Shown here: positions 6,799-43,494 of the stretch, piece by piece | How the letters are laid out: each line of letters starts with the position of its first letter | How positions within the stretch are numbered: position 1 is the first letter of the stretch | Virus record (IMG/VR): IMGVR_UViG_3300015607_002134 | Location: 1-64,000 of that record | From: an uncultured virus (IMG/VR IMGVR_UViG_3300015607_002134) | Lineage: Duplodnaviria; Heunggongvirae; Uroviricota; Caudoviricetes | DNA: 64,000 nt | Direction: 5' to 3' (one strand) | Notes under the pieces: model-generated | Databases searched by the model: none | Told to the model about the DNA's origin: nothing | The model's input: only the letters and a program-made list of their open reading frames with translations | Made by a program: the position numbers and the translations under genes

Positions 6799-7755
6799 AT
6801 GCAAATATATAAAATAACCAATCTAATAAACAACAAAATATATATTGGAAAAGATACAACTTCTGATCCTAATTACTTTGGTTCTGGATTACTTATAAAC
6901 AGAGCCAAACAAAAATATGGACTATCAAAATTCATAAAAGAAATTATTGATGAAACAAATGATTATAATGAATTATCAGTGAAAGAAATTTACTGGATAA
7001 ATTTTTATAAATCAAATGATAGGAGTATTGGATATAATATCTCAAGTGGTGGAGATGGTGGAGATACTTTATCAAACCATCCTGATTTAGAATTAATAAG
7101 AGAAAAAATATCCAATAATAGTAAAACCAAAGGTAAAACTTATGAAGAAGTATTTGGTATTGAAAATGCAAAGATATATAAAGATAAATTATCAAAATCA
7201 AATAAAAGAATTTTACTTGGTAAAACATTTGATGAATTATATGGTGTTGATGACTCAAAAAGGATAAAAGAAATTATTAGTCTTAATAGTAAGAAAAGTT
7301 GGACCAATGAGAGAAAACAAAAACACTCAGAAAACTCTAAATTAAATATACATAAGTCTTTATTATCAGAAAAATCCATAGAAAACAATAGAAAATATCT
7401 AGAAGAAAGATGGAATAAATGGAAATATGATGAGGAAAGCTTAATTAAAAAAATGATTAGTGATAATTCAATAAATGATTTAATTGAATATACTAAAAAA
7501 ATACCAAATACCTTATTTAATAATAGAAAAGAGTTTTATAAATTTATTGGAAAAGATTTACAAAAAATAATAAAATATGAATTTATTAAAAGAAGAAAAC
7601 CTAATTCATTGAATGAAGAAAATAAAGTTAAAATTTATATTGATGGTAAAGAGTATGAATCAATTACATATGCTGCTAAAGTTCTTGACATAGAAAGGTC
7701 TTTAATAAGATATAGATTAAAATCAAAAAATTATCCTGAGTATTTTTATATATAG
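6799..7755 (+). mobile_element. GIY-YIG homing endonuclease
   Basis: IYKITNLINNKIYIGK, YFGSG, GYNISSGGDGG, repeated GKT(Y/F)(E/D)E(V/L)(F/Y)G units and a NUMOD1-like C-terminus. Confidence 0.9.
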
Positions 7756-7758
7756 AAT

Positions 7759-8184
7759 ATGAGATATTTAAGAAAATTTTATGAGAATAAAGAAACAAAC
7801 ACCTACAGGGTTGAAAAAGAACCTAGTAGAAATTCAATAACATGGTATAATGGTGATAAAAGATGTGGATTATTTGACTATTTTACTAATCATAAAAGAG
7901 AGAATGATACTGCTTATATAATGGGTTATATGAAAGATGATAAATCTGTTGATGGTTATCAATTTATTAAAATGTCAATTGATTATTTACTTAATAATGG
8001 AATGAAAGCTGTTGTATCAAGTGGTTGTAGATCACCACAAGCAGCTATTGTTTGGCGAAGATTAGCTAAGGAAGATAAGTATAATGTTGAAACTATTGAA
8101 CGCAATTATTATCCTGGTTATATATCAGATAGACATAGTGAAAAAATAAATAAAATATGTTACCATTTCAAGAAACTAAATTAA
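7759..8184 (+). CDS. Hypothetical protein, possibly GNAT-like
   Basis: MRYLRKFYE start; VVSSGCRSPQAAIVWRRL resembles phage GNAT-like folds (weak). Confidence 0.45.
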   Translation: MRYLRKFYENKETNTYRVEKEPSRNSITWYNGDKRCGLFDYFTNHKRENDTAYIMGYMKDDKSVDGYQFIKMSIDYLLNNGMKAVVSSGCRSPQAAIVWRRLAKEDKYNVETIERNYYPGYISDRHSEKINKICYHFKKLN

Positions 8185-8441: not shown

Positions 8442-9571
8442 TCAGCTTTGACTTTATAGTTTTCATTGTATATTCTAATGACTTCATCAAATTCATTTAC
8501 TATTCCTGACTTGAATTTATCATTATCGTACTTTTGTTTTAGAATATACTCTTTTATATAGTCTTCATATTCTAACTGAACAGATATTTCCATTCCATTC
8601 TCATCTAGTTCTATCTCATTGGACTCGTTAACTTCCTCACCATCAACTAATTCCTTAGTTATATCATCAATATATTCAACTGATGCAAAGTTTCCTTTTT
8701 CTAACATAACTTCCAGCTTTCTACGAAGTTTTCTATTACTGATTAGTAAGTTGTTTGATATAGCTAAATCAATATAGTCTTTTGTATCTTTTAAATCATC
8801 TAGCTTATCAATATCTTCTTCAGAAACAACTCTAAATTTTCTAAAAACGGGTGAAACATTATTTGGAAAAAAATCTTCAGTGTCATTATCAGTGTCTATT
8901 ACAAAAATTCCTTTTTGATCACCTGTGTCGTTTCTATCCATTTGAAAAATAGATCCTACAAATGTAAATTGTTTATTAGATTGGACTAGATGTATATGTC
9001 CAGACCTAACTTTTGAAAATGACTTAAAGTCATTTATATCTATCTTATCTGCATTTTTATGAGCAACAGATGTTAGGTGCATTTTACAACCATTAAGATC
9101 AGAATGACAAAATAAATAATCACAGTTTTTATTTTCCTCTATTGATTTTATTTGTTCTAGTCTCTTTTCGATAAATGGCATCATCAATATTTTTAGACCG
9201 TTATATTCTAATACCTCTGTTGAATTGTATATTTTAACATTTGGTATATACCTAAATGGTCTAACAGAGTTAATTTCTGATGCACTTTTTGACCAAAGGT
9301 CATGGTTACCTACTATTATATGTAGAGGTGCTATTTTTGATATCTCTTCTACAACATCCATGCCATAGTTAAGTAAATTTATTGGAATAATATTCCTGTT
9401 ATCAAATAAATCACCAAGATGAACTATTATATCACCTGGTTTTACTTCTTTTTTGAGAAGAGGGATTAGAAAATCACTAAAGTATTGTTGGTGAACTTTG
9501 AACCATTTATCAACACTGTTTGGATATCCAAGTCCTATGTGTGTGTCACCTATTAAAAATATTTTACTCAT
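8438..9571 (-). CDS. Mre11/SbcD-like recombination nuclease (T4 gp47-like)
   Basis: Metallophosphoesterase motifs GDTHIG, LGDLFD, VGNHD, SGHIH. Confidence 0.9.
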   Translation of the reverse strand: MSKIFLIGDTHIGLGYPNSVDKWFKVHQQYFSDFLIPLLKKEVKPGDIIVHLGDLFDNRNIIPINLLNYGMDVVEEISKIAPLHIIVGNHDLWSKSASEINSVRPFRYIPNVKIYNSTEVLEYNGLKILMMPFIEKRLEQIKSIEENKNCDYLFCHSDLNGCKMHLTSVAHKNADKIDINDFKSFSKVRSGHIHLVQSNKQFTFVGSIFQMDRNDTGDQKGIFVIDTDNDTEDFFPNNVSPVFRKFRVVSEEDIDKLDDLKDTKDYIDLAISNNLLISNRKLRRKLEVMLEKGNFASVEYIDDITKELVDGEEVNESNEIELDENGMEISVQLEYEDYIKEYILKQKYDNDKFKSGIVNEFDEVIRIYNENYKVKAD

Positions 9572-9642
9572 GTGTAAAAGGACGGAATTATTTTTTAATA
9601 TATAGAGATATATACTGTTATATAAAAAAAATAAGAATAGTT

Positions 9643-10443
9643 ATGATATACACTAATAATTTCGCCTATTTTCTTGGGTTTTTATGGTCTGATGGTTCTA
9701 TTGAGAGATATAGAACAATATTAGAGATAGTTGAAGATGATGCTTTGGATATAGTTGAAGATATAAAAAGTATCAATTTTCTCAATGTTTGTACCATGAG
9801 AAGAACTAGAAAGAATAGAAGACCTCAAATGTCTATATATTTTTGTGATTCTAAATTTTATGATGATTATCAATCAAAATACTTTATAGATAAGAGTTTT
9901 AAATCACCTATGGATTTACTAAATGATATACCAGTTGATTTAGTTAGATACTTTTATCTTGGTCTTATTGATGGTGATGGTTGTTTTTATTTTAATGAAA
10001 AGAATAAATCAAGACAGTTTTATGTCACTTCTTGTTATGACCAAGATTGGTCACATATAGAGAGTCTATTTAAATCTTTGAATATTAGTCAATATGAGAT
10101 TAGAAGAGTGGTTAGTAAAAAAGGTAATAAGAGTTCTTATATAAGAATTAAAAAGCACCAAGAGATAGTAAATCTTTATGAATATTTATATCCAAATGGA
10201 TATGAGTTGGGATTAAAACGAAAATTTAATAAATGTAAAAGTATTATTGATAATAAACCTAGAAACTCATCTAATAAATCCAAGATTGATATTGATATGT
10301 TGGTATCTAAGATAAATGAGGGATTGGATATTGTTGATATAGCTGAGTATTTTAATTGTAATTGGCGTAAGGTATATAACTTTTGTAAGATTAATGAGAT
10401 ATCTTATAGCAGGGGATTTTTCAAGAGAACTAGAAAGAATTAA
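9643..10443 (+). mobile_element. LAGLIDADG homing endonuclease (start moved to 9643)
   Basis: Two motifs, YFLGFLWSDG and FYLGLIDGDG; late motif at 9596-9604 precedes ATG 9643. Confidence 0.85.
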
Positions 10444-11833: not shown

Positions 11834-12749
11834 GAACAACGAAAATACCTGACGCTCCGTTGGGAAATTGCATCTCTGTGTGGACCTCCTCACCACACGA
11901 ACACATCTTCTTCAATTCCTTGATACCAAATGTCATTTTACCAACAGCAGCATTCAAGAACTGGAACGAAATATCATCAATTTGTTCAAATTCTTTAAGC
12001 TTAGCTTTGATACCTTCATATGTTATAGATGATCTACCCGCTAACATAAAAGGAATAATTTTTAAGAACGAAAGGTTTGGAGTTCTTTTTTCATTATTTT
12101 CTTTAAGAATATAATCAGTAAAAGCTTTTTGAAGTCCAATATTTGGTGGAGTTAATTCAAATTCTTTTCCATTTACTGTAGTAAAATGGTATGATCTTGA
12201 AGATGCACTAAAGAATCTATCAAGTTTTTCATCAATTGTGTGGAATTCAAATGAATCTCTTTTTAGTTCTATACTTAGTTCTTCTCCACATCCGCATTTA
12301 GCAGACACGGCTAATGAATTACCTTGTTGGAATGTTAATTCTCTAATTAAGAATACTAAGAATAATCTATCTTGGTCTTTTATTTCAAGATAAGATCCAA
12401 CTTTACCATCTGAGTATTTTATTCTAATACACGCTTGTAGAATATCATTCATTTTTTCTACAATGTCATAGAAATTTTGATCATCAACCATTGAGTAAGA
12501 TTGGATCTCTTTTACTTGAGCTGGTCTTACCATTACGACAGTTCCTGCTGGATAAAATTGACCACAAGGTAATTCTTTAACATCAAAGTTAAAATACTGA
12601 AGATCTGTAGTTCTTGTATTATCCATTTTTGGCTGTTCCACAAATGGAATATCGCTATTGGTAGTAGGTTTTTTTGTTGATTCCAAAGAACCTAAATGTT
12701 TCTTTAAGTACTCTTCTTCACTCATATTATTTTTTTGTTCATCAGACAT
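11802..12749 (-). CDS. Baseplate hub subunit (T4 gp26-like)
   Basis: LPCGQFY...VRPAQVKE, DRLFLVFLIRELTF, two CxCG motifs. Confidence 0.65.
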   Translation of the reverse strand: MSDEQKNNMSEEEYLKKHLGSLESTKKPTTNSDIPFVEQPKMDNTRTTDLQYFNFDVKELPCGQFYPAGTVVMVRPAQVKEIQSYSMVDDQNFYDIVEKMNDILQACIRIKYSDGKVGSYLEIKDQDRLFLVFLIRELTFQQGNSLAVSAKCGCGEELSIELKRDSFEFHTIDEKLDRFFSASSRSYHFTTVNGKEFELTPPNIGLQKAFTDYILKENNEKRTPNLSFLKIIPFMLAGRSSITYEGIKAKLKEFEQIDDISFQFLNAAVGKMTFGIKELKKMCSCGEEVHTEMQFPNGASGIFVVHDAFEAYIKE

Positions 12750-21921: not shown

Positions 21922-22206
21922 ATGGAACAAGAATTAAAGACAGTTTGTAAAAATCCTTGGTGTAAATCAACTTTTTTCTATAAAGAGGCTGATATGATAC
22001 CAATAGAAACTGACAAACGAATGTCAAACTTAGACAATGTTTTAGGTGAGATTCCTATGATGCCACCTCCAGTTTGTCCAAAATGTAAAAGTTTTGACAC
22101 TGAATTAAGTGGTGGTGTTAATTGGAAAACAAAAGATTATGAAGGCCCAAGGTTTGATGGTGTTCCACATGAATTTAGATATAAAGTTACAAACTATAGA
22201 TTATGA
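21922..22206 (+). CDS. Small Zn-ribbon protein
   Basis: CKNPWC and CPKC; late motif at 21909-21917. Confidence 0.6.
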   Translation: MEQELKTVCKNPWCKSTFFYKEADMIPIETDKRMSNLDNVLGEIPMMPPPVCPKCKSFDTELSGGVNWKTKDYEGPRFDGVPHEFRYKVTNYRL

Positions 22207-24320: not shown

Positions 24321-25292
24321 ATGAAAATAGATGATAATATAGAAACGGTTACATGTAGGATATGTGGTGAACAATGTAAGCGAATATATGGTAAACACTT
24401 AAAATATAAACATAATAATATGACCACTGAGGTTTATAAGAAATTATTTCCTGGCGCACCTATAATGGCCCTTTCTGATGTTAAGAATACAACCAAGAAC
24501 GGTGGGATTCATATGAAACAGGAAAAATATAAAAAAATGTTTTCAGAAAAAATAAAAGGAGAAAAAAATCCTAACCATAAATCTAAAACAATTGAGTTAG
24601 AGAGAAAATCAAGAAGCCCATTTTCAAAAGAATTTATAAAGTATAAGGGTGTAGATAATGTTGAAGAATATATAAGTGAATTCGCTAAAGAAGCTATTAA
24701 AGAGAGAATACACCCTACCACGTTGGGATATTATATCAATAAGGGATATTCAATTGATGAATCTAAAAATCTATTGAAAGAGAGACAAAGAACATTTACG
24801 TTAGATAAGTGTATTGATAAACTTGGTAAAGAAATTGGTTATAGTAGATGGTTAGATAGACAAGAGAAATGGCTTAGTAATTATAAAAAAGTTAATTATA
24901 GCGCTATAAGTCAGGAGATGTTTATATCAATATATAATGAGTTGGTTAAATTAGGTTTTGATAATAAAGTTTATTTTGCTAGGTTAGATGATAATAACCA
25001 AATACATGATACAAATAGAAATTATGAGTTTAGGTTAAAGTTAAATAATTCGTATATACTTCCTGACTTTTTTATACCTGATTTGAAATTAATTTTAGAA
25101 TTTGATGGGACATATTATCATAGAGATAATCCAGAGAATAAAGAAAGAGAGAGAAAAAGAGACCAAAATATATTAAGATCTGGTTATAAAGTAATGCATA
25201 TAAGTGAAAAGGAATATATAAATAATAAGGAATTGACTGTCTTAAAAATGGTAAACTTTATATTAAAAGCAAAACAATTGAAAAATGTTTAA
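24321..25292 (+). mobile_element. Free-standing Vsr/DUF559-like endonuclease between the intein halves
   Basis: N-terminal CRICG...H...H finger; PDFFIPDLKLILEFDGTYYH...RDQNILRSGYKVMHISE. Confidence 0.85.
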
Positions 25293-27507
25293 ATTTTTTA
25301 CAAATTTCTTAATAGTAATTATCAAGGGTTTAATACAATTAATAGAAAAAATAGAATATAAAAATCTATCATTAGATGAAGATGATATTAATAAAAAAAT
25401 ATTAAATTCTATTAGTGTGTTAGATATAAGAGTAAAAACTGATACCGGTTATGAAAAGCTAACAGATTTATATTTAACACAACCATATAGAAATTATGTT
25501 CTAACAACAGATAGATATGAATTACGGTGTGCAGATAATCATATAGTATTTGATAAAAACTATAATGAAGTTTTTGTTAAAGATTTAAAAATTGACGATT
25601 TAATATGGACAGAATCTGGTTTAGAAAAAGTTAAATCTTTAAGTTTAGATAGTTTTAAATCATCTATGTTTGATGTTACAGTAGATCATCCAAATCATAG
25701 ATTATACACAAATGGTATACTATCACATAATACAATATCGTCATCTATTTTCATGTTGCATACTATTTTGTTTAATAATGATAAGAATATAATGATTGTT
25801 GCGAACAAAGGAGATACAGCTGTTGAGATTGTTGATAAAATCAAATCAATTTATACATTACTTCCTTTCTTTTTGAAACCCGGTATTAAAACTTGGAACC
25901 AAAAATCATTAACATTTGAAAACGGTTGTAGAATTAAAACTTCTGCTAGAACAAAAACTCCAGCTATCGGTTTTACTATTGACGTTCTTTATCTTGATGA
26001 GTTTGCGCATATTCCTTCAAATATTATTGAACCATATTACACCGCGGCTTTTCCAACCGTATCCGCTGTTCAGAATTCAAAAATTATTATTACTTCTACC
26101 CCTAATGGTATGAATTTATTTCATAAGCTACTTACTGATGCTGAAAGACCTGATGGTGACCCTTTGAAGAATAACTATAAACCGATGAGGGTTTACTGGT
26201 ATCAGGTTCCTGGTAGATTCGTTACTTATATAAGGTTAAATCAGCATAAACTATATGAACATGGTGTTACTAAAGAAGATATATTCAAGATCGTAAACGA
26301 TACATTTGGTGAAATTACTAAAGTTGAGATGAAGTTTATAATGGACTTACAAAAGGATGTAATATATGTCTATAATAGTGAACTTTGTTCTGATGAAGAT
26401 GTTAAATCATTGAAGTTTATAGATAAAGATGATAGAGAGATATCTTTCCTTTCAATAGCTGAGATGACAACTTGGAAAGAGGAAGCAATAAAAGATATTG
26501 GTGGTGAGGATGCCTTTAACCAAGAGTATGGTCTAAGATTTATTAACTCAAGTAAGTCATTGTTGAATGAAAAAATAATCGATGAGTTACTAAAGAGTAA
26601 AAAGAACTATGTGTTTGAACAGATACCTGAATTCGATAGAAAGCTTAGATTCAGTTATAGTGACTTGAAATGGGTTGATGATGACGATGTATTTATGCTT
26701 ATTCAGAGAAAAGACTTAAAAGTTGTACTTTCTGTCGATATTTCAGAAGGACTTGGTCAGGATTACTCTATAATAAACATATTCAAAGTGTCTCCTAAGC
26801 CTAAGGATCTTTGCGAATTACAAAGACCTTCTTATAAGAGTATTGTTGACTTTTTCAGATTGGAACAAATTGGAATATTCAGAAGTAACTTCGTTTCAGT
26901 TAAACAATTAGCTGAGTTATTATATATGATTGTTTTTGAATACTTTAACTATGAGAATGTTAAAGTGGTTCTTGAGTTGAATAACTATGGTAATGCCTTA
27001 TTGGCTGAAATGCCACACGTTTTTGATGGCAATAATAACTATGGTTCTTCTGTTTTCTTCAGATATAAGCACAGAGCTGATTCAACTGAAGAGAAAGTAG
27101 GTCTGAAAGTTGGTGATAATAAGAACTTAATGGTTAAGGATTATCAAGATTTAATGTTAAGTAAAGGGTTTGTTATAACCAATGAGGATAATATCAGAGA
27201 AATAACAACATTTGTTAAGCACGTTACATCATCTGGTAATGTTAGATACGCTGCTGATGTTGGGCACGATGATACTGTAATGACCGTTGTCAACGCAACT
27301 ACTGTTTTTGTTAGAAATGACTTTAGAGAGATGATAGAAGAGTTCTCTACGAAGATGAATGATAAAGGATTTGTTAATTATGTTAATGAGTGCTTGAAAA
27401 ACATGGAATATGTTGAGGGTGTTGATTATGGTCAAGTTCTTAGGATAAGAAGGCAACAAATGACTAGATATAAGGGAAGTAAGAATTCCTGGTTTGGTGG
27501 GCAATAA
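25285..27507 (+). CDS. terL: Split intein C-part (aa 1-149) plus terminase large subunit C-fragment
   Basis: LRCADNH (block B), MFDVTV...YTNGILSHN|T junction at 25731/25732; then LYLDEFAH, ITSTPNG, VDISEGLGQDYS, HDDTVM. Confidence 0.92.
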   Translation: MFKFFTNFLIVIIKGLIQLIEKIEYKNLSLDEDDINKKILNSISVLDIRVKTDTGYEKLTDLYLTQPYRNYVLTTDRYELRCADNHIVFDKNYNEVFVKDLKIDDLIWTESGLEKVKSLSLDSFKSSMFDVTVDHPNHRLYTNGILSHNTISSSIFMLHTILFNNDKNIMIVANKGDTAVEIVDKIKSIYTLLPFFLKPGIKTWNQKSLTFENGCRIKTSARTKTPAIGFTIDVLYLDEFAHIPSNIIEPYYTAAFPTVSAVQNSKIIITSTPNGMNLFHKLLTDAERPDGDPLKNNYKPMRVYWYQVPGRFVTYIRLNQHKLYEHGVTKEDIFKIVNDTFGEITKVEMKFIMDLQKDVIYVYNSELCSDEDVKSLKFIDKDDREISFLSIAEMTTWKEEAIKDIGGEDAFNQEYGLRFINSSKSLLNEKIIDELLKSKKNYVFEQIPEFDRKLRFSYSDLKWVDDDDVFMLIQRKDLKVVLSVDISEGLGQDYSIINIFKVSPKPKDLCELQRPSYKSIVDFFRLEQIGIFRSNFVSVKQLAELLYMIVFEYFNYENVKVVLELNNYGNALLAEMPHVFDGNNNYGSSVFFRYKHRADSTEEKVGLKVGDNKNLMVKDYQDLMLSKGFVITNEDNIREITTFVKHVTSSGNVRYAADVGHDDTVMTVVNATTVFVRNDFREMIEEFSTKMNDKGFVNYVNECLKNMEYVEGVDYGQVLRIRRQQMTRYKGSKNSWFGGQ

Positions 27508-27903: not shown

Positions 27904-28428
27904 TTATAAGTTTTCAATTGTTGTTATTTTCTTATTTACAACATCAACAATGTTGATGTCTGCTCTTTGACCAACTGCCCATTGTTTGAATTTCACCAAA
28001 TGTTCGTGTCTGTCGTCATACATTGTTAACTCCTTAACCTTCAACTCTTTCATCTTTTGTTCAAAAAGTCTTGTCTTGAAGTTATATGTATCACCACCCC
28101 AGTTTAGCCAAATTTCATCGAAAGTTATGTTATTTTGTTCAAGGATTTTATCAATGTTCTTTCTCATACCTTGAGACTTCTGTAATCTACCAGTAGCCAT
28201 TATTACATAAGCATCTGGGTCAGCCATAGCTTCTTTATATCTTGCTAAAACCCACTCATTTGCAGGGATATAGAAAACTTCTGTGTTTAAGCTTTCTGCT
28301 TTACCCCACCATCCTGTGTGTGGGAACTCGAACCCGGTCTTTTCTCTCCAGACTCTTCTACCTTCGTGTGGTTCAGGTGTGTGAAACATAGTTCCATCGA
28401 AGTCAAAAACTATTAATTTAGTGTACAT
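27904..28428 (-). CDS. HAD-family phosphatase (RNA-repair-associated type)
   Basis: FDFDGTMFHTP, MATGR, MYDDRHEH; host-type promoter at 28454-28485 supports a start at 28428. Confidence 0.75.
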   Translation of the reverse strand: MYTKLIVFDFDGTMFHTPEPHEGRRVWREKTGFEFPHTGWWGKAESLNTEVFYIPANEWVLARYKEAMADPDAYVIMATGRLQKSQGMRKNIDKILEQNNITFDEIWLNWGGDTYNFKTRLFEQKMKELKVKELTMYDDRHEHLVKFKQWAVGQRADINIVDVVNKKITTIENL

Positions 28429-28538
28429 TGTGATATCTATTAATTCTAAAATACAAATATATGAAAAATATGGTAAATTTCCAAAAATATAAGGAAAAGA
28501 ACACTTATCTAATATATAAACCAAAAGAAAAAGTTTTT

Positions 28539-30917: not shown

Positions 30918-31526
30918 ATGTATATAAAAAGATTCGAGAGTTTTTCAGATGTTGATACTTTGATGATTGTAGATGTTCAAAAAAGTTTCCGTAAATTTTT
31001 TACAGAAATGTATGTTAATGAATTAAAAAAGTATTGTCATAATTTTAAAAATGTTTATCAGATTTTTGATAACCACGTAGATGGTAAACAGGTTGATAAA
31101 GACTATTTGTACCAAAGTTCACCTGACGTCCCAGTTCATGATGATTTGTATCATTTCCCGAATCAAAGGGACATTATAGAAAAGAGATATAATTATGATG
31201 TTGATATCGACTTTTATAAGAAAATACTAAGTAAAAATGTCTATGATGAGATAAAATCCAAGGAAGGCAAACTACAAAAAGGTAATTATTTTCTAACAAA
31301 TGAAGGAACTATTATCGTATTCATTGGTAATAGGCATCAATGGTTCCATTGTCCAATTAAGCTATATAAACTACTAAGTGGTATGAGTGGAAAGGAAATA
31401 ACGATAGTGGGTGGGGCTGATTCAGAATGTCTGGAGGATGTTGTTACGACAGCTGAATCACTTGGTGTTAAAGTGAAGAGGGACCATAAATATATATACT
31501 CCGCTAATCATTGTCCTATAAAATAA
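30918..31526 (+). CDS. Isochorismatase/cysteine-hydrolase-like protein
   Basis: LMIVDVQ and IVGGADSECL motifs; MYIKRFES start. Confidence 0.65.
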   Translation: MYIKRFESFSDVDTLMIVDVQKSFRKFFTEMYVNELKKYCHNFKNVYQIFDNHVDGKQVDKDYLYQSSPDVPVHDDLYHFPNQRDIIEKRYNYDVDIDFYKKILSKNVYDEIKSKEGKLQKGNYFLTNEGTIIVFIGNRHQWFHCPIKLYKLLSGMSGKEITIVGGADSECLEDVVTTAESLGVKVKRDHKYIYSANHCPIK

Positions 31527-31537
31527 CTATATAGTAT

Positions 31538-31996
31538 ATGAAATATTTGAAGAAATTTAATGAGAAATTTATCGATGATCCAGAACCAATGGACATACCA
31601 GAGTCGGCTTACCTCTACACTGACTTTTCACAGATAGAAAATGCTGGCATGGGGTTATATACTGCTATAGATATAAATAAGGGAGAAATAATTGCAGTTT
31701 ATCATGGTGAGATACTAAGCGATGAAGAGGCAGATGAGAGGGTGGAGAACGATGATGATCAATATTTTATGGAATTACCAAGTGGTGAAATTTTAGACTG
31801 TAAATTTACAGATGGATTTGCTAAATATGCTAATGATGCTGAGGGTGTTCCCACTAATTTTAAAAACAACTCTTATATTGGAATTGATGATGACGATAAT
31901 GTTGTATTAATTGCTAAGAGAAATATTAAAGCTGATGAAGAGATATTTACTGGATACGGTAAGGCATATTGGAAAAAACACGCCAGTGGTTTATAA
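31538..31996 (+). CDS. SET-domain methyltransferase
   Basis: AGMGLYT...KGEII, AKYANDA, IAKRNIKADEEIFTGYG...YW. Confidence 0.9.
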   Translation: MKYLKKFNEKFIDDPEPMDIPESAYLYTDFSQIENAGMGLYTAIDINKGEIIAVYHGEILSDEEADERVENDDDQYFMELPSGEILDCKFTDGFAKYANDAEGVPTNFKNNSYIGIDDDDNVVLIAKRNIKADEEIFTGYGKAYWKKHASGL

Positions 31997-33088
31997 GTTA
32001 TCTACAAATTTATATAACTTCTTAAGATACTCATTTTTCTTATAATTATCATTTGTCATTGCGTAAACAACAAAACAGAAGTATTTTAACTTCTCTATCA
32101 AAGTATTCTTATCAATCTCACCACCTACATATCTAAATTCAACATAGTTGTGTTCTAACTTTAATAGATTGAATCCGAAGTTCTTCATTCCCCAATCTTT
32201 TATTTTCCTTGTTAGGAACTCACTGAATATTAATTCGACTGAATTGACATCCTTCATATCTAATGACTTCTTTAGTTCTTCTTTTTCTTCGGGATTCATT
32301 TTATTTATTTCAGTCATAACTGATCCACAGAAATTATTATTATATCTCCAATCCATATTCTTAAATACGAATGGTAGACTATTATCAGATTTGAAGTCAT
32401 TTATCATTAATATACCCTTTATAGGATTCCAATCTACCTTTTCAGAATTAACACCAATGTTTATGTGTAGTCCAGTTCTTGATGAAAACTCCCAGTAGTT
32501 CTGCTTTGATAAGTCATCATAGAAGTCATTTATCATCTCTATACCTTTTGATATACCAACGACAAATGTTTTTGGTTTTATTTCTATTCCTCTTTCAAGA
32601 GTTGCATCTTCAACAAAGTCCATATAGTCTCCCCATTTCTTTGTGAAATTCGGAAGTTCTTGTTTGGCTTTCTCTATTAGGTATTCCAAGTCTTCTCCGG
32701 ATATATGACTAAGTAGTATTGACTTTGTGAATCCAGCTATTTCCATCTCTTCTATATTATCATATGCGCCCTCGTCAAATAAATGATAGAAGTCTTCATT
32801 TGAGACAATCCCATCATTAGTCATCTCAAGTAAACTGTCTATTAAGTCATCAACTAATTGTTTTGACTTTCTTTTTCTTAATCTAAGTTCAGTTTTAACT
32901 ATACTCTTAATGTCTTCTACGATGTCATCATCCTCTAATATGGTGAAGTCTAGGTGTATATTACTTTTATCCTGAGTCTCTATCTCAAATTCAAACGAGA
33001 TTGTAAAATAGTCATTTTTGGATTCTATTTCTGATATGTCTCTTGGATTTACTTCCTCGAATAGATTATACCTGGATATATGTCTCAT
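31991..33088 (-). CDS. Putative amidoligase (COOH-NH2 ligase family)
   Basis: ISFEFEIE, DATL, GIEI, TGLHINIG, YVEFRYVGG. Confidence 0.75.
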   Translation of the reverse strand: MRHISRYNLFEEVNPRDISEIESKNDYFTISFEFEIETQDKSNIHLDFTILEDDDIVEDIKSIVKTELRLRKRKSKQLVDDLIDSLLEMTNDGIVSNEDFYHLFDEGAYDNIEEMEIAGFTKSILLSHISGEDLEYLIEKAKQELPNFTKKWGDYMDFVEDATLERGIEIKPKTFVVGISKGIEMINDFYDDLSKQNYWEFSSRTGLHINIGVNSEKVDWNPIKGILMINDFKSDNSLPFVFKNMDWRYNNNFCGSVMTEINKMNPEEKEELKKSLDMKDVNSVELIFSEFLTRKIKDWGMKNFGFNLLKLEHNYVEFRYVGGEIDKNTLIEKLKYFCFVVYAMTNDNYKKNEYLKKLYKFVDNL

Positions 33089-33120
33089 TATCTATATATA
33101 AAAAATAATATATACCAATT

Positions 33121-34411: not shown

Positions 34412-34426
34412 TAAAAAAGAGTCAGA

Positions 34427-34906
34427 TTATTCTGACTCTTTTTCTTTTAGTATATTACTAATCAATTCATCTCTGTGTTCTTCCGTGTAGTCGAGAAATG
34501 TACCAAGAGAATCCTCCATGACATTTGCAGACCTTCTCTCTCCCTCTTTCTCATTTCTGTATTCTAACTTCCACTCTGAAATAGGGTTCATTTTGATTAC
34601 CCATAGGTATTTTGGATCACCGAGATCTTCTACTTTTGTTCCTTCTTTTAGAATGAATGAGTTTTCATATAGTGACTCATCTGGTGTGAAATATCCTAGT
34701 TTAGCATTATTGTATTTTTCGTAAACCGCCTCAAACATATCCTCGTATATATTATATGGAAAGATTGATTGAAGCCAATCTTTTAGTTCACTCATTCGGT
34801 CATTTGAGTATATCTTAGTATTTCTAGGATTTTCTGATTTAGACCAAAATGTATCACATTTGAAGTATTTAACCCCTTTTATTTCTACAAATAATACCGC
34901 TCTCAT
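34427..34906 (-). CDS. Hypothetical protein with C-terminal RDELISNIL motif
   Basis: Coupled to the upstream ORF; last gene of the minus-strand operon. Confidence 0.6.
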   Translation of the reverse strand: MRAVLFVEIKGVKYFKCDTFWSKSENPRNTKIYSNDRMSELKDWLQSIFPYNIYEDMFEAVYEKYNNAKLGYFTPDESLYENSFILKEGTKVEDLGDPKYLWVIKMNPISEWKLEYRNEKEGERRSANVMEDSLGTFLDYTEEHRDELISNILKEKESE

Positions 34907-35314: not shown

Positions 35315-35899
35315 TTATTTTTTGGTTGTTAATTTAATTATTTGTTTACCTCTTTGATTGATATTTTTCCATTTGATCTTGAAAGAGGTTGAATCAAGAC
35401 CACCGAACATTTTGGCATTTGAGTGTATCTCCGCTAATCCGACTAATAATAATGTTAAGTGATGTGGATTTTGGCAAAATTCTTCCACTCCTTCTGATTT
35501 TAACAGATGGATATCCATGTCATGTTTAATTAATTCGGATGCTATTTTATCATCGAAAATCTCACTGAATACTTTGTGTGATACTTCAGCATGACTTGGG
35601 AAATGTTTTTTTCCATCCTTATCCACCTCTACACAATATGGTTTCCCACAATCGTGTAATACTGTGTAATATTTGATAGTTTTATCAGATGGTAGATTGT
35701 TAATGAATAAATCTTTATTTTCATATAACCAATCTGGTAATTTCCAGTCGTATTTTAATGGTGTGTTATACTTTAAGTGATTTATTAAATCAAAAGTATA
35801 GTTTTTAACGGATATACCGTGCTCTAATACAGACTGACCTTGAGTCTGTTCACATGATTTCATGTCTTTAATTAGATTCTTGAATTTAATCTACTTCAT
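35315..35899 (-). CDS. HD-domain phosphohydrolase with in-frame TAG at codon 3
   Basis: VLEHG, LHDCGKP, HF..HAEVS; ATG AAG TAG ATT at 35899-35888, in frame, starting 1 nt after the upstream stop. Confidence 0.75.
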
Positions 35900-35900
35900 A

Positions 35901-36539
35901 TTATTTTATTTTTTCTTTAACTACTTTTAATAAATGTGGATATAACCACTTTTCGTCTTTTAATTCAACTTCATCTACTAATCCACCATCAATCATTTTT
36001 TTCAGTTTTCCTCTATCTATCTGAGATGTTGGATCAATTGAGTTGCTTTTCTTAATGATGTTTCCATTTTCTAATTGAATAAAAACTGTATTTTTTGGAA
36101 AAGTGACTGAATTATTTTGGTAATTATACCATTCATATTCTTCTTTTAATTTCCAAGCTTTCAATTCATATTTTTTTGGCTCTTCTTTTTCACTAAAAAT
36201 TCTTTCTATTTTACACTGTCTTTCATATTCTTTATCCAATCTATACAGTGGTATTATTCTGTATTCCCAATTTTGGGATTTATACATTTTGAGATATGCG
36301 CCCATTGCTGAATCTTTACTATTGTAGATTCTGTGGTTCCAGTGATTGTACCACTCTGTCCAATTTCCATTGTAGTTTGTTCTTGATTCAATAGCCCATC
36401 CATATGGTTTTATATCTGCTGATGTATGTTGTATCTTTACATCTAATGAATCATCGATGATATACTCTTTACTATCAACAGTTACGATATTTGGTTTGTT
36501 GAATATTTTTTTGATTTTATTTGCTATTTTCATTTCCAA
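35901..36539 (-). CDS. Hypothetical protein
   Basis: Overlaps the PTH2-like gene end; internal RQCKIERIF motif. Confidence 0.6.
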   Translation of the reverse strand: MEMKIANKIKKIFNKPNIVTVDSKEYIIDDSLDVKIQHTSADIKPYGWAIESRTNYNGNWTEWYNHWNHRIYNSKDSAMGAYLKMYKSQNWEYRIIPLYRLDKEYERQCKIERIFSEKEEPKKYELKAWKLKEEYEWYNYQNNSVTFPKNTVFIQLENGNIIKKSNSIDPTSQIDRGKLKKMIDGGLVDEVELKDEKWLYPHLLKVVKEKIK

Positions 36540-36885
36540 TCTCCTTATTTTTTAATAAAAGTGGTAAGCTTCTTAATTTTTTTCTAATTTCTGGTGTTCC
36601 GTAGAGGCAAAGAGATGTCATCTCATCTACGTCAGGTTCATAGAAGATTACACTTGGTGTTAATTCTTTAAATTTTTCGTAAAGTTTTTTTAACTCAAAC
36701 TCGTTTTTGACACCTAAGCAGATGATAGAGTTTGATTCCAGTTTCCATTTAGCAAATGTTTCTGGGAATTCAAATGCGAAGTCGGCGATTGAATGTGTTG
36801 ATTGTACCGCTTGGTACCCTGGTGATATATCCTCTCTTGTGATAATCACTAGTTTTGTTTCCTCGTTGTTAATCTAGTTTTTCAT
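36517..36885 (-). CDS. PTH2-like peptidyl-tRNA hydrolase with in-frame TAG at codon 4
   Basis: KLVIITREDISPGYQAVQSTHS, W, IICLGV, FYEPD...TSLCL, LRSLPLL; ATG AAA AAC TAG ATT at 36885-36871. Confidence 0.75.
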
Positions 36886-36913
36886 ATTGTTTGTTTTTTT
36901 GTTTAAAATAAAA

Positions 36914-37009
36914 AATCTCCTTATCTGTGACCTGTCAATACTTGACAATTAACTCATTAAACTTAATGCATCGAGGCAAATAAGTTGAGTAGTCCCAGTT
37001 AAGGAGATT
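36914..37009 (-). ncRNA. Structured cis-regulatory leader RNA (three-way junction then U-tract)
   Basis: AATCTCCTTA/TAAGGAGATT, CTG/CAG and GACT/GGTC outer stem; ACTCA/TGAGT and ACTTA/TAAGT arm; TGTCAA/TTGACA arm; then TTTTATTTT. Confidence 0.6.
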
Positions 37010-37045
37010 CCGAATTTTATATGTGTTAATCTACATCATTTTCAT
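36935..37045 (-). CDS. Leader peptide MKMM-amber with in-frame continuation to TGA
   Basis: ATG AAA ATG ATG TAG ATT AAC, then open to TGA at 36937-36935. Confidence 0.55.
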
Positions 37046-37048
37046 TTT

Positions 37049-37089
37049 ATTATAGTACAAATATATATTAAAAGTTTTATACCTCCAAA
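37049..37089 (-). promoter_or_regulatory. Stacked promoter motifs for the amber operon
   Basis: TTTG-N20-TATATTTG (37089-37058), TAATATATA (37070-37062) and AAACTT-N17-TATAAT (37077-37049). Confidence 0.6.
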
Positions 37090-37100
37090 TTTTTTCAAAA

Positions 37101-37478
37101 TTATTTTATGATAGCATAAACTTCATAGTCTGTTATTTGGAATTTTATTTCCATCATCTCTTGATAATTTTCTGGATCAGAAAAAAATTCAACAGTTAGC
37201 TCAAAACTTGTATTTGTTAATTCGGGTATGTACTCATATATCTGTTCTAGTAAATTTCTCTCTACTGCTTCTGCTGAAACTCTTGTTTGATGTAATAGTT
37301 TGGGTAAATCGCCACCAAAGTTCGGTTCACCCAATACTTCACCTTTATTTGTGAATATTATCATCTCATACTTCTGTACAATTACCCTAACTAAATCATC
37401 TTCAATTAACTTCTTATCGGTGAATCTTGGATGACCTTTATATCCTATGTAAAAATCTATGAAATTAAAATTTGCCAT
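37101..37478 (-). CDS. Baseplate wedge subunit (gp25/GpW-like)
   Basis: IIFTNKGEVLGEPNFGGDLPKLL, IYEYIP. Confidence 0.8.
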   Translation of the reverse strand: MANFNFIDFYIGYKGHPRFTDKKLIEDDLVRVIVQKYEMIIFTNKGEVLGEPNFGGDLPKLLHQTRVSAEAVERNLLEQIYEYIPELTNTSFELTVEFFSDPENYQEMMEIKFQITDYEVYAIIK

Positions 37479-37508
37479 AAATTATATATTAATTTAATAT
37501 ATACTTGT

Positions 37509-38105
37509 ATGAAATACATCCGAAAATATAATGAATCTGAGAGTGCATATGGTGCCAAAGAGAAGATTGAGAAGTGGAGAAATGATATAATAAAGAAGTT
37601 GGTATATTATCATAATAACTTTAGTGATAATTTATCAAAGGAAATAGAACAATTCACTTGGGAATATGAAGACACAAATACTTATACTGAAGTTGATGGT
37701 GTGATTGATGCGGAATGTGTTTCTATGTTAATTGATAATGTTCTTCAAGACTGGGTTAGAAACCAGGATAAGTTTTTGGAGTTATATTATGATATTCATC
37801 AAACTTTGAAGAACAGGGGAGAAGACTTAACTGAACAATTGAAAGAGATATTTGCTGATTATTTAGATGATGACTCTTTAAGAGTTCGTATTTATAGAAC
37901 TGCTGATAGCTCAGACGATAGATATGAAATTAGTATAAGTGGTGAAGATAATATGTTCAATAAGATTTCATTCAATGAAATTGTGAATAGAACAAAAGAT
38001 ATTGGGTTATCTAAGTTTAGATATTCTGGAGATGACAGTAGTATTTCTTTCTCTTTTTGGAAAGAAGTGGATGATAACTACGATGATGTTGAAATTGATG
38101 ATTAA
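37509..38105 (+). CDS. Acidic hypothetical protein (start moved to 37509)
   Basis: MKYIRKYNESE directly after the late motif at 37495-37503. Confidence 0.6.
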   Translation: MKYIRKYNESESAYGAKEKIEKWRNDIIKKLVYYHNNFSDNLSKEIEQFTWEYEDTNTYTEVDGVIDAECVSMLIDNVLQDWVRNQDKFLELYYDIHQTLKNRGEDLTEQLKEIFADYLDDDSLRVRIYRTADSSDDRYEISISGEDNMFNKISFNEIVNRTKDIGLSKFRYSGDDSSISFSFWKEVDDNYDDVEIDD

Positions 38106-42408: not shown

Positions 42409-43494
42409 TTATGCCAATTCATTTATTTCACTGAATACTGTTTCAAGCATTCTATTTGATACTAAATAAGGGTCGCAGTTTGAGGCAGGTCTCCTATCTT
42501 CAAAATATCCTTTCTTATCAACTATTGCCTGAGCTGGTATTCTGATTGATGTGTCTCTTGTGCTATATCCATAGCTAAAGTCATGTATACCTGATGTTTC
42601 ATGTTCACCGGTTAATCTTTGTTCATTGTGTAATCCATATACATCAATGTGATTTTGATGATTTTTTTCAAGTTTAATCATCGATTCTTTTATTATATCG
42701 ATACCACCTTCAGATCTCATTTCTTTAGTCGAGAAGTTAACATGACATCCTGTTCCATTCCAATCACCTTTGATAGGTTTTGGGTGAAGAGATACATTGA
42801 CATTATGTTTTTCTGCCACTCTTTGTAATAGATATCTAGATATCCATAATTGATCTGAACCATTTAATGCGGTTACTGGTCCAATTTGATACTCCCATTG
42901 TCCTAAAAGAACTTCTGCATTTATACCAGATATTTCTAAACCTATATTTAAACATAGATTCATATGTTCTTCTACTATTTCTCTACCAACAACAGTATCA
43001 GCTCCTATTCCACAGTAATAATCACCTTGTGGTCTTGGAGTTTGACCTATTGTAAATCCTAATGGTAAACCAACTCCCTCAGAAAATGGTGAAACTGGTT
43101 TGTGTGTCAGTGTGTATTCTTGTTCCCATCCAAACCAAGGTAATTCTGATTTTGGTGAGTTTTCATTTATTCCTAGTTCTTTTAATCTATTTACTAGTTT
43201 GTGTCTGTTATTTGATTCGTGTGGTGTTCCATCTGGACTCATAACTTCACATAAAACTAATTTAGAACCATTATTTCTAAATGGGTCGTTTACTACAAAT
43301 ACTGGTTTTAATAAACAGTCAGTATTTTTGCCTTTTCCAGATAAAGCTTGTTTTGTTGAACTTCCATCAAATGACCAAATTGAATAGTTTGATGGGTCAT
43401 TGTTTTCAATGGGTTCAGATATTTTTGTCTTACTTCTCAGTTGTTGTGGGTTATTCCCATCCAACCAAATGTACTCTAACATGATTTTATTCAT
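42409..43494 (-). CDS. glnII: Glutamine synthetase type II
   Basis: EYIWLDG, WSFDGSST, EQEYT, INAEV...QWEYQIGP, DWNGTGCH, YFEDRRPASNCDPY. Confidence 0.93.
   Translation of the reverse strand: MNKIMLEYIWLDGNNPQQLRSKTKISEPIENNDPSNYSIWSFDGSSTKQALSGKGKNTDCLLKPVFVVNDPFRNNGSKLVLCEVMSPDGTPHESNNRHKLVNRLKELGINENSPKSELPWFGWEQEYTLTHKPVSPFSEGVGLPLGFTIGQTPRPQGDYYCGIGADTVVGREIVEEHMNLCLNIGLEISGINAEVLLGQWEYQIGPVTALNGSDQLWISRYLLQRVAEKHNVNVSLHPKPIKGDWNGTGCHVNFSTKEMRSEGGIDIIKESMIKLEKNHQNHIDVYGLHNEQRLTGEHETSGIHDFSYGYSTRDTSIRIPAQAIVDKKGYFEDRRPASNCDPYLVSNRMLETVFSEINELA

Follow-up and report, generated by a model that had tools for sequence, protein, structure and literature searches.

Introduction

Transcription attenuation in enterobacteria is typified by the trpL, hisL and pheL leaders, in which a short leader open reading frame (ORF) carries regulatory codons decoded by charged tRNA and is followed by an intrinsic terminator; the pyrBI leader of E. 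coli has an ORF that extends into the terminator hairpin, and the signal there is UTP-dependent pausing of RNA polymerase. To our knowledge, the natural leader-peptide attenuators described so far sense only the tRNA of a sense codon, a small molecule or polymerase pausing. Here we describe an element from an uncultured virus of the Caudoviricetes (IMG/VR record IMGVR_UViG_3300015607_002134), in the stretch of 64,000 nucleotides (positions 1 to 64,000 of the record) that is referred to below as the window. The element is a minus-strand leader that lies directly ahead of a gene with a peptidyl-tRNA hydrolase 2 (PTH2) fold. It is real and conserved, and we interpret it with moderate confidence as a ribosome-mediated transcription attenuator that senses amber suppression, the regulatory codon being the amber stop itself; from the sequence comparisons, the tRNA-related enzymes encoded downstream are probably transcribed only while the leader UAG is read through.

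With the classical attenuators the phage element shares a short leader ORF after a promoter-like box, a regulatory codon and a predicted intrinsic terminator; their regulatory codon is a sense codon, however, whereas that of the phage element is a stop (UAG). The logic would also be inverted with respect to trp, where stalling at the regulatory codon prevents termination; here, passing it would do so. The trp leader further possesses an antiterminator hairpin, whereas the phage element has no conserved alternative hairpin. As in pyrBI, the leader ORF extends over the terminator, whose folding would be blocked by a ribosome that follows the polymerase closely; a similar position effect is described in the available part of PMC4824070, in which a Rho-independent terminator a few base pairs after a translated gene was almost completely repressed. 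Unlike pyrBI, the phage element would sense UAG read-through and not UTP-dependent pausing.

In tnaC, a ribosome at the stop codon after a C-terminal proline prevents termination downstream (PMC6412442, available in part); tnaC differs from the phage element in that it is Rho-dependent, acts through a masked rut site, senses free tryptophan and has no internal stop codon. The logic proposed here is that of the engineered 'Uaa transcriptional switch' (described in the same partial text), in which TAG was set into the trp/tna leader. That switch is synthetic, depends on an orthogonal tRNA/synthetase pair in its E. coli host and terminates through Rho, whereas the phage element is natural and has a hairpin followed by a U-tract. 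Full-text literature searches found no description of a natural element of this kind.

Results

In the direction of transcription, the leader is built as follows.

37056 to 37077, minus strand: promoter-like box AAACTTTTAATATATATTTGTA, which holds TAnnTTTG and ATATATA motifs and has a putative promoter role
37031 to 37045, minus strand: leader mini-ORF, ATG AAA ATG ATG TAG, with the amber codon at 37033-37031
36935 to 37030, minus strand: continuation of the leader ORF past TAG, with 31 sense codons before TGA (36937-36935)
36914 to 37009, minus strand: terminator-like hairpin, a 96-nt three-way junction
36905 to 36915, minus strand: U-rich tract TTTTTTATTTT, of which the first two T are paired within the stem
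36886 to 36904, minus strand: A-rich spacer from the terminator to the gene start, without a promoter motif

A sequence-only reading of this region had proposed a 96-nt junction starting 21 nt after the leader UAG, with an outer stem containing two mismatches, two inner arms and a U-rich tract behind it, and each of these parts was found where it had been placed. The outer stem consists of 19-nt strands, AATCTCCTTAACTGGGACT (37009-36991, 5') and GGTCACAGATAAGGAGATT (36932-36914, 3'), which pair with two mismatches, enclose the two inner arms and are followed directly by TTTTATTTT. As had also been claimed, the read-through frame crosses the 5' strand and ends in the last arm; it traverses both inner arms, and its TGA, which is codon 37, sits 2 nt ahead of the hairpin 3' strand. 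RNAfold, applied to the minus strand of 36900-37050, returned the three-way junction with a minimum free energy of -39.3 kcal/mol, against -22.5 +/- 3.4 kcal/mol in 200 dinucleotide shuffles, none of which was as stable (z = -4.96); the folding check suggested with the sequence-only reading was thus borne out. The complementary strand also folds (z = -5.72), because any inverted repeat does. The 10-mer TAGATTAACA is present in exactly two copies, one in the leader and one at the gene start, and copies with one mismatch were not enriched (18 seen vs 16.7 expected). A repeat or mobile element was rejected as an identity, the whole element being single-copy in the 74.8-kb record; an identical leader sequence is present in a second IMG/VR record.

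Homologues were collected from viral and metagenome contigs, with aligned sequences of the downstream protein as the query, which yielded 44 plus 80 loci (124). A total of 126 loci, each with at least 40 nt of upstream sequence, were scanned for the leader, shorter ones being dropped and identical leaders collapsed. The leader is carried by 35 of the 126 loci, corresponding to 31 distinct sequences, and the other 91 loci are without it; phage relatives of 635 kb and 642 kb have a syntenic leader ahead of the same downstream gene. A scan of the 635-kb relative gave a single leader signature and no amber leader beyond the homologous one.

An ATG..TAG mini-ORF, usually in the form ATG ATG TAG ATT, is kept in all 31 distinct leaders. 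The TAG is invariant, a sense codon in its place never having been seen, and is followed directly by ATT in 30/31. In 30 of the 31 leaders the read-through frame extends for 9-11 codons to a Pro-Pro-stop (CCT CCN TAA/TGA) that coincides with the 5' strand of the hairpin base, with the stop at stem positions 7-9. The spacer from TAG to Pro-Pro-stop measures 27 nt (21 leaders), 30 nt (8 leaders) or 33 nt (1 leader), all multiples of three, and the distance from TAG to stem among the homologous leaders is 23-33 nt. The 30 in-frame leaders would encode peptides ending in RPP (18), KPP (7), VPP (3), NPP (1) or DPP (1). All four synonymous forms of the second Pro codon occur (CCT, CCA, CCG, CCC), and the base at the third position changes together with its partner in the stem (AU 11, UA 9, CG 1, GU 1, UG 1). 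The window leader, whose 5' strand is ATCTCCTTAA, is out of the Pro-Pro-stop register.

At the hairpin base of the homologues, CCUCC is paired with GGRGG. RNAalifold, supplied with the 31 leaders, found a 10-pair basal stem in which 5 pairs show double changes and 93.5% of cells pair; covariation among homologous leaders, which had been put forward as a check, was evident in this stem, with a score of 0.356 against 0.170 +/- 0.018 in shuffles (0/500 reached it) and 0.014-0.082 in slid controls. The 31 hairpins have folding energies of -18.8 to -37.7 kcal/mol, and every stem is followed by a U-tract, with 6-9 T among the next 10 bases (31/31). Their interiors, on the other hand, differ in both sequence and length (56-95 nt); 28 of the 31 are unbranched, the branched ones being those of the window, L007 and L056 (L numbers designate individual loci). 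The three-way junction, which the sequence-only reading had taken as the unit, is therefore local to the window; the conserved unit is any strong hairpin on the conserved base, followed by U's. Stable hairpins and a U-tract with unrelated interiors are what would be expected if hairpin formation alone matters. A conserved structured RNA, such as a riboswitch- or ribozyme-like three-way junction, was rejected, since the leaders share no junction and no interior nucleotides.

An Rfam search, likewise among the checks first suggested, gave no match at this place, and the homologous leaders were reached by the protein-based route described above. Within 36400-37600, at E <= 10, it returned just two weak chance matches, neither of which overlaps the element, and at the leader loci of seven relatives, at E <= 0.1, it returned tRNAs and a weak YrlA match overlapping tRNAs, and nothing else; the element therefore belongs to no known RNA family and is neither an HDV-like nor a theta ribozyme. 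A tRNA was rejected as well, since ARAGORN found none in the window and none in the rest of the 74.8-kb record. When given the 31 leaders, RNAalifold recovered the basal terminator stem only, with no conserved upstream hairpin or antiterminator, and the candidate attenuator would therefore be of the ribosome-occlusion (pyrBI-like) subtype and not of the trp subtype.

We take TAnnTTTG to be a promoter motif of the Bacteroidota -7 type. The pattern AAACTTTN{4,10}TTTGTA has its sole match in the window at the box at 37056..37077, and the box AAACTTT..TATATTTGTA is likewise unique within the window; in the 635-kb relative this box additionally stands ahead of two tRNA arrays, and a shorter TTATATTTGTA motif stands ahead of a tRNA(CUA)-like gene. 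In the 70 nt that precede each of the 31 leaders, TAnnTTTG is present in 24/31 and ATATATA in 30/31; the exception, the leader of L094, is placed directly after a tRNA gene. Neither motif occurs in any of the 31 spacers between hairpin and gene, and the gene must therefore be reached through the hairpin. Sigma-70-like sites were at chance level in a simple promoter scan (30 found vs 30.3 expected). Elsewhere in the window, (T)ATATAG is seen 3 nt before the ATG of many genes (e.g. 7746-7761, 31525-31540, 22190-22205, and 33088-33100 on the minus strand), and ATATATA(A) is seen 5-25 nt before the gated gene in relatives; these sequences may represent a phage promoter or initiator with very short 5' leaders.

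The leader region is flanked on the minus strand by a gp25-like baseplate wedge gene (37478-37101; phrog_261 match, E = 4.8e-8) and the gene at 36885-36517. Upstream neighbours vary among loci, being the baseplate gene in the window and L002 and other genes in L003, L006 and L007, and the same downstream gene always follows; the leader thus belongs to the downstream gene. This bears on the proposal that the hairpin is an ordinary constitutive terminator or a processing hairpin, for example an RNase III site, with the mini-ORF as a non-functional duplicate of the gene start, which we hold to be quite improbable. The leader start (ATATATA ... ATG x TAG ATT AAC) is close to the gene start of leaderless relatives, suggesting an origin by duplication, and phage RNase III sites do resemble long imperfect hairpins; folding of both strands would also fit. 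A dead duplicate, however, would lose its TAG (kept in 31/31), its frame (30/31), its restriction to indels in multiples of three and its four synonymous Pro codons with their partners. The element moreover keeps to the downstream gene and not to the upstream one, and a constitutive terminator, with no promoter beyond the hairpin, would silence a conserved operon.

In the mechanism that we favour, transcription would start at the promoter-like box just upstream of the leader, and a ribosome would begin on the mini-ORF of 2-4 codons. If UAG acts as a stop, the ribosome would leave 21-33 nt before the hairpin, too far to disturb the stem; hairpin and U-tract would then form and RNA polymerase would terminate ahead of the operon. 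Where a phage tRNA carrying the anticodon CUA decodes the UAG, translation would continue; in 30 of the 31 leaders it would come to the Pro-Pro-stop within the 5' strand of the hairpin base, and the ribosome, its A site at the stop codon (stem positions 7-9), would cover the G-C pairs there. In the part of PMC6412442 available to us, the C-termini that most reduce the efficiency of termination in E. coli are those of consecutive prolines, and RF1 is influenced by the base that follows UAG on its 3' side; Pro-Pro before a stop is in this sense a slow termination context, which would hold the ribosome in place during passage of the polymerase over the U-tract. In the window variant the whole hairpin would be translated, up to the TGA 2 nt before the 3' strand, with the same outcome: the stem would be occupied or unwound as the polymerase crosses the U-tract, and the operon would be transcribed. 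The functional steps that we infer are promoter use, termination at the U-tract, decoding of UAG, slow release at Pro-Pro-stop and coupling of transcription to translation in the host. Among public sequencing runs, no RNA run was listed for this sequence. The proposal of the sequence-only reading, in which translation that ends at UAG spares the stem whereas read-through melts it, is supported by the invariant TAG, the Pro-Pro-stop frame, the covariation of the stem, the U-tract and the lack of a promoter motif in the spacer, and these comparisons support it more strongly than the window by itself.

A ribosome stalled on the basic-Pro-Pro-stop could also act after transcription, as an arrest peptide that opens the hairpin and thereby either frees its Shine-Dalgarno (SD)-like 3' strand (UAAGGAGG) or alters processing or stability of the mRNA; translation would then be what is controlled, on the model of SecM, MifM, ErmC and the RAPP leaders. 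We regard such a switch as unlikely. Its SD-like strand is indeed recognizable, the 3' strand being TAAGGAG(G/A) and the 5' strand its complement, yet its distance from the ATG of the gene varies, at ~28-50 nt, and is longer than an SD would allow. Nor are SD motifs used by the phage: they precede 2 of 71 genes, against a 6.4% background, and upstream regions are A-rich, which fits a Bacteroidota-type host and argues against the SD-like 3' strand as a ribosome-binding site. Spacing and lack of SD use together make SD sequestration unlikely as the main mechanism, and the invariant U-tract and the promoter-free spacer would be left unexplained. As regards the arrest peptide itself, Arg or Lys directly precedes Pro-Pro in 25 of the 30 in-frame leaders, and RAPP-type arrest peptides are established regulators according to the accessible parts of PMC10951233 and PMC7897499. 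RAPP/RGPP peptides such as ApdA and ApdP (PMC10951233, PMC7897499, PMC12992588, each available in part) likewise have a basic-...-Pro-Pro end on an mRNA hairpin; the known cases in these partial texts expose an SD and monitor protein localisation, whereas in the phage leaders the stop follows Pro-Pro directly. Because C-terminal Arg-Ala/Gly-Pro-Pro is found in 0/30 leaders, identity with an arrest peptide of the RAPP type was rejected.

Amber codons recur at the starts of two of the genes downstream of the leader, which lie on the minus strand as follows, with a terminator-like sequence beyond them.

36517 to 36885, minus strand: PTH2-fold (peptidyl-tRNA hydrolase 2-like) gene, starting ATG AAA AAC TAG ATT, with the amber codon at 36876-36874
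35901 to 36539, minus strand: ORF of 212 amino acids with no assigned function, between the two amber-gated genes
35315 to 35899, minus strand: HD-domain gene, starting ATG AAG TAG ATT, with the amber codon at 35893-35891
34414 to 34443, no strand assigned: simple 13-bp hairpin between A and T runs, between convergent genes at the end of the minus-strand row

A profile of the PTH2-like gene matched 2zv3 (E = 1.5e-6) and six other PTH2 chains in the PDB, and its AlphaFold model (pLDDT 90.9) was matched by Foldseek to 1wn2, 2zv3 and 3erj with TM scores of 0.70-0.74; the modelled product has the PTH2 fold, its role as a hydrolase being putative. The sequence-only reading had called the leader a second read-through-dependent gate; the first, as we take it, is the TAG near the start of this gene. 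In 82 of 90 distinct homologues, a set that leaves out loci with <330 nt upstream or a cut ORF, the gene has an amber-gated start (ATG, 0-8 codons, in-frame TAG before the core), with the TAG at about codon 4; two further homologues with a longer N-terminus were judged by eye to be gated, and the most distant homologues (25-50% identity) have a plain ATG start. The 212-amino-acid ORF had no Pfam or PHROG match. The HD family is matched by PF01966 (HD) in 21 of 22 members (best E = 3.9e-6), and the HD gene shows a weak profile match to the class-II tRNA nucleotidyltransferase structures 3wfp-3wfs (E = 0.003) and a conserved Met ~10 codons past its amber codon. Among 94 distinct loci whose downstream sequence is long enough, 43 have a gated HD gene following the PTH2-like gene. 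Of 32 matches to the gated-start pattern in the 635-kb relative, the convincing ones are the PTH2-like and HD genes only. Both genes would require read-through again at about codon 4, making leader and gene starts a two-level AND gate. We also observed a conserved TAG at about codon 3-5 of PTH2-fold and HD genes in ~80 related loci of huge phages with the standard code, often directly downstream of tRNA(CUA), and in PHROG 14850 the two domains seem to be fused in one protein.

The identity of the gated gene invites another explanation, in which the leader is a minigene sensor of peptidyl-tRNA hydrolase, along the lines of the lambda bar minigenes with their short ORFs. No amber suppression would be involved: the fate of the ribosome at UAG (slow release or drop-off) would depend on the hydrolase, the PTH2-like gene would be autoregulated, and the following frame would be re-initiated at the invariant AUU. 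The PTH2 fold of the regulated gene, the very short mini-ORF and the ATT that follows TAG in 30 of 31 leaders, AUU being a rare start codon, are in keeping with this idea, which we nevertheless consider very improbable. The codon after the TAG of the gene is ATT, ATA, GTA, GTT or ACA (Ile, Val or Thr), a substitution pattern expected of a translated codon; GTA, ATA, ACA and GTT, found in distant homologues, are not start codons, and those distant loci adjoin canonical tRNA(CUA) genes, a linkage to which the minigene sensor gives no role.

The suppressor that the favoured attenuation mechanism calls for has candidates near these loci. ARAGORN identified canonical tRNA(CUA) genes next to the PTH2-like gene in 15 loci. 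A stricter scan in which an atypical form was accepted placed a tRNA(CUA) or tRNA(CUA)-like gene <=700 nt upstream in 28 of 102 distinct loci, and a looser rule for an upstream CUA gene gave 33 of 90. In relatives, tRNA(CUA) genes take the slot of the leader, and the leader-bearing loci that have tRNA(CUA) are L094, with the tRNA end 22 nt before the leader, and L033, with two. At L094 (933-1168), a canonical tRNA(CUA), an amber leader, a terminator and a gated gene succeed one another within 250 nt, an order in which the hairpin would serve also as the conditional terminator of the tRNA itself.

The atypical form has ~26 nt between its acceptor and anticodon stems, where an ordinary tRNA has the D-arm; both stems covary, with double changes in 11 of 17 pairs, and the loop contains an invariant CTAA. 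These genes are missed by ARAGORN and reached the Rfam tRNA threshold in 1 of 20 loci. They stand upstream of the gene in L027, L074, L078, L084, L107, L109, L111, L116, L128, L129 and others, and the 635-kb and 642-kb genomes have one copy each, far from the leader. Two examples are given here.

12340-12421 (LR745206 507340-507421): atypical tRNA(CUA)-like gene, L199
LR756502 609681-609761, minus strand: atypical tRNA(CUA)-like gene, L207

A BLAST search of the 635-kb relative with the canonical tRNA(CUA) genes of other loci gave short, unrelated matches only. As further observations, LR745206 has tRNA-like genes at 388064-388143 and 344211-344291 that seem to be without a D-arm and to have long variable arms, with loops read by eye as UCU and UCG, and ARAGORN reported a tRNA with a 4-base anticodon (gtag) at LR745206 407364-407437.

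The source record of the window comprises 74,823 bases and is 13% complete (CheckV); among named records, the nearest are two genomes of uncultured phages, 642,428 and 634,780 bases long, and the window is a piece of a ~0.6-Mb huge phage with a standard code. Its G+C content is ~30%, and it encodes T4-like phage functions, including a large terminase (25285-27507), a sheath-like giant protein, a gp15-like sheath stabiliser and a clamp-loader ATPase. TAG is the terminal stop of 10 of 71 long ORFs in the window and of 45 of 599 in the 635-kb relative, no in-frame TAG was found in long genes, and reading TAG as sense would lengthen ORFs by just 4-8%; a genome-wide code 15, with TAG reassigned to Gln, was rejected on these grounds. 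Since the genome otherwise stops at TAG, the codon is a meaningful signal. A suppressor tRNA and in-frame TAG have likewise been proposed as a gate in stop-codon-recoded phages (Borges et al., 10.1101/2021.08.26.457843, available in part). The phage described here differs in having a standard code and, judging from the 635-kb relative, gated starts in the leader and two genes of one operon. In the portion of the Borges et al. text available, the strings 'attenuat', 'leader', 'terminator' and 'hydrolase' occur 0 times.

The window also contains homing-endonuclease-like ORFs at 6799-7755 and 9520-10443 (plus strand) and at 24321-25292, among which are an I-TevI DNA-binding domain, a weak LAGLIDADG match and a DUF559/REase-like domain adjoining the large terminase gene. 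Auxiliary genes include a glutamine synthetase-like gene (42409-43494, minus strand) and a SET-domain gene (31538-31996, plus strand), and a HAD domain of the 'Swiss Army Knife' RNA repair type lies at 27904-28524 (minus strand).

Discussion

Several observations weigh against an attenuator that senses amber suppression. The hairpins, at 56-95 nt, are far longer than textbook terminators, and a simple terminator scan did not flag that of the window, because the scan permits loops of 3-8 nt only; the 13-bp hairpin at 34414-34443 indicates that the phage uses ordinary hairpin-plus-U terminators. The window leader is the one that breaks the Pro-Pro-stop rule, having the 31-codon extension instead. 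Summed entropy by codon position in the spacer is only weakly coding-like, with 5.97, 3.90 and 7.76 at positions 1, 2 and 3 in one spacer class and 5.24, 6.39 and 6.90 in the other, and the classes of spacer length number just three. In a neighbour-joining tree without support values the 31 leaders form one large clade and one pair, and they therefore represent far fewer than 31 independent events; of 90 distinct homologue loci, 63 are without a leader. With respect to the suppressor, ARAGORN found no tRNA(CUA) on the record of the window, which is 13% complete, and none of the 59 tRNAs that it found in the complete 635-kb relative has the anticodon CUA, so that the sole candidate there is the atypical tRNA-like gene, whose suppressor activity is putative.

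If the attenuator is as we propose, the suppressor tRNAs of standard-code phages would gain a concrete function, and phages would couple the question 'is UAG being read?' to transcription as well as to translation. The element would be a natural counterpart of the synthetic-biology switches that use unnatural amino acids (PMC6412442, in its available part), and a compact part of ~130 nt for measuring suppression in vivo. Its link from suppression to tRNA-handling enzymes (PTH2 fold, HD domain) suggests that phages manage the cost of partial read-through.

A broader reading, which we offer tentatively and hold to be rather unlikely as a whole, is that the leader forms part of a closed circuit of suppressor, attenuator and enzyme feedback, which would gauge and set the level of amber suppression in a phage where TAG still closes 7-14% of the genes. 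Partial read-through would arise from the atypical tRNA(CUA); by way of the attenuator and the TAGs at codon 4, the output of the PTH2-like and HD enzymes would scale with it, and these enzymes would in turn target the suppressor tRNA, either as such or in its peptidyl or aminoacyl state. Should such a circuit exist, suppressor tRNAs in standard-code phages would serve dedicated 'code-state' switches, at the level of transcription and of translation, and not the recoding of the genome.

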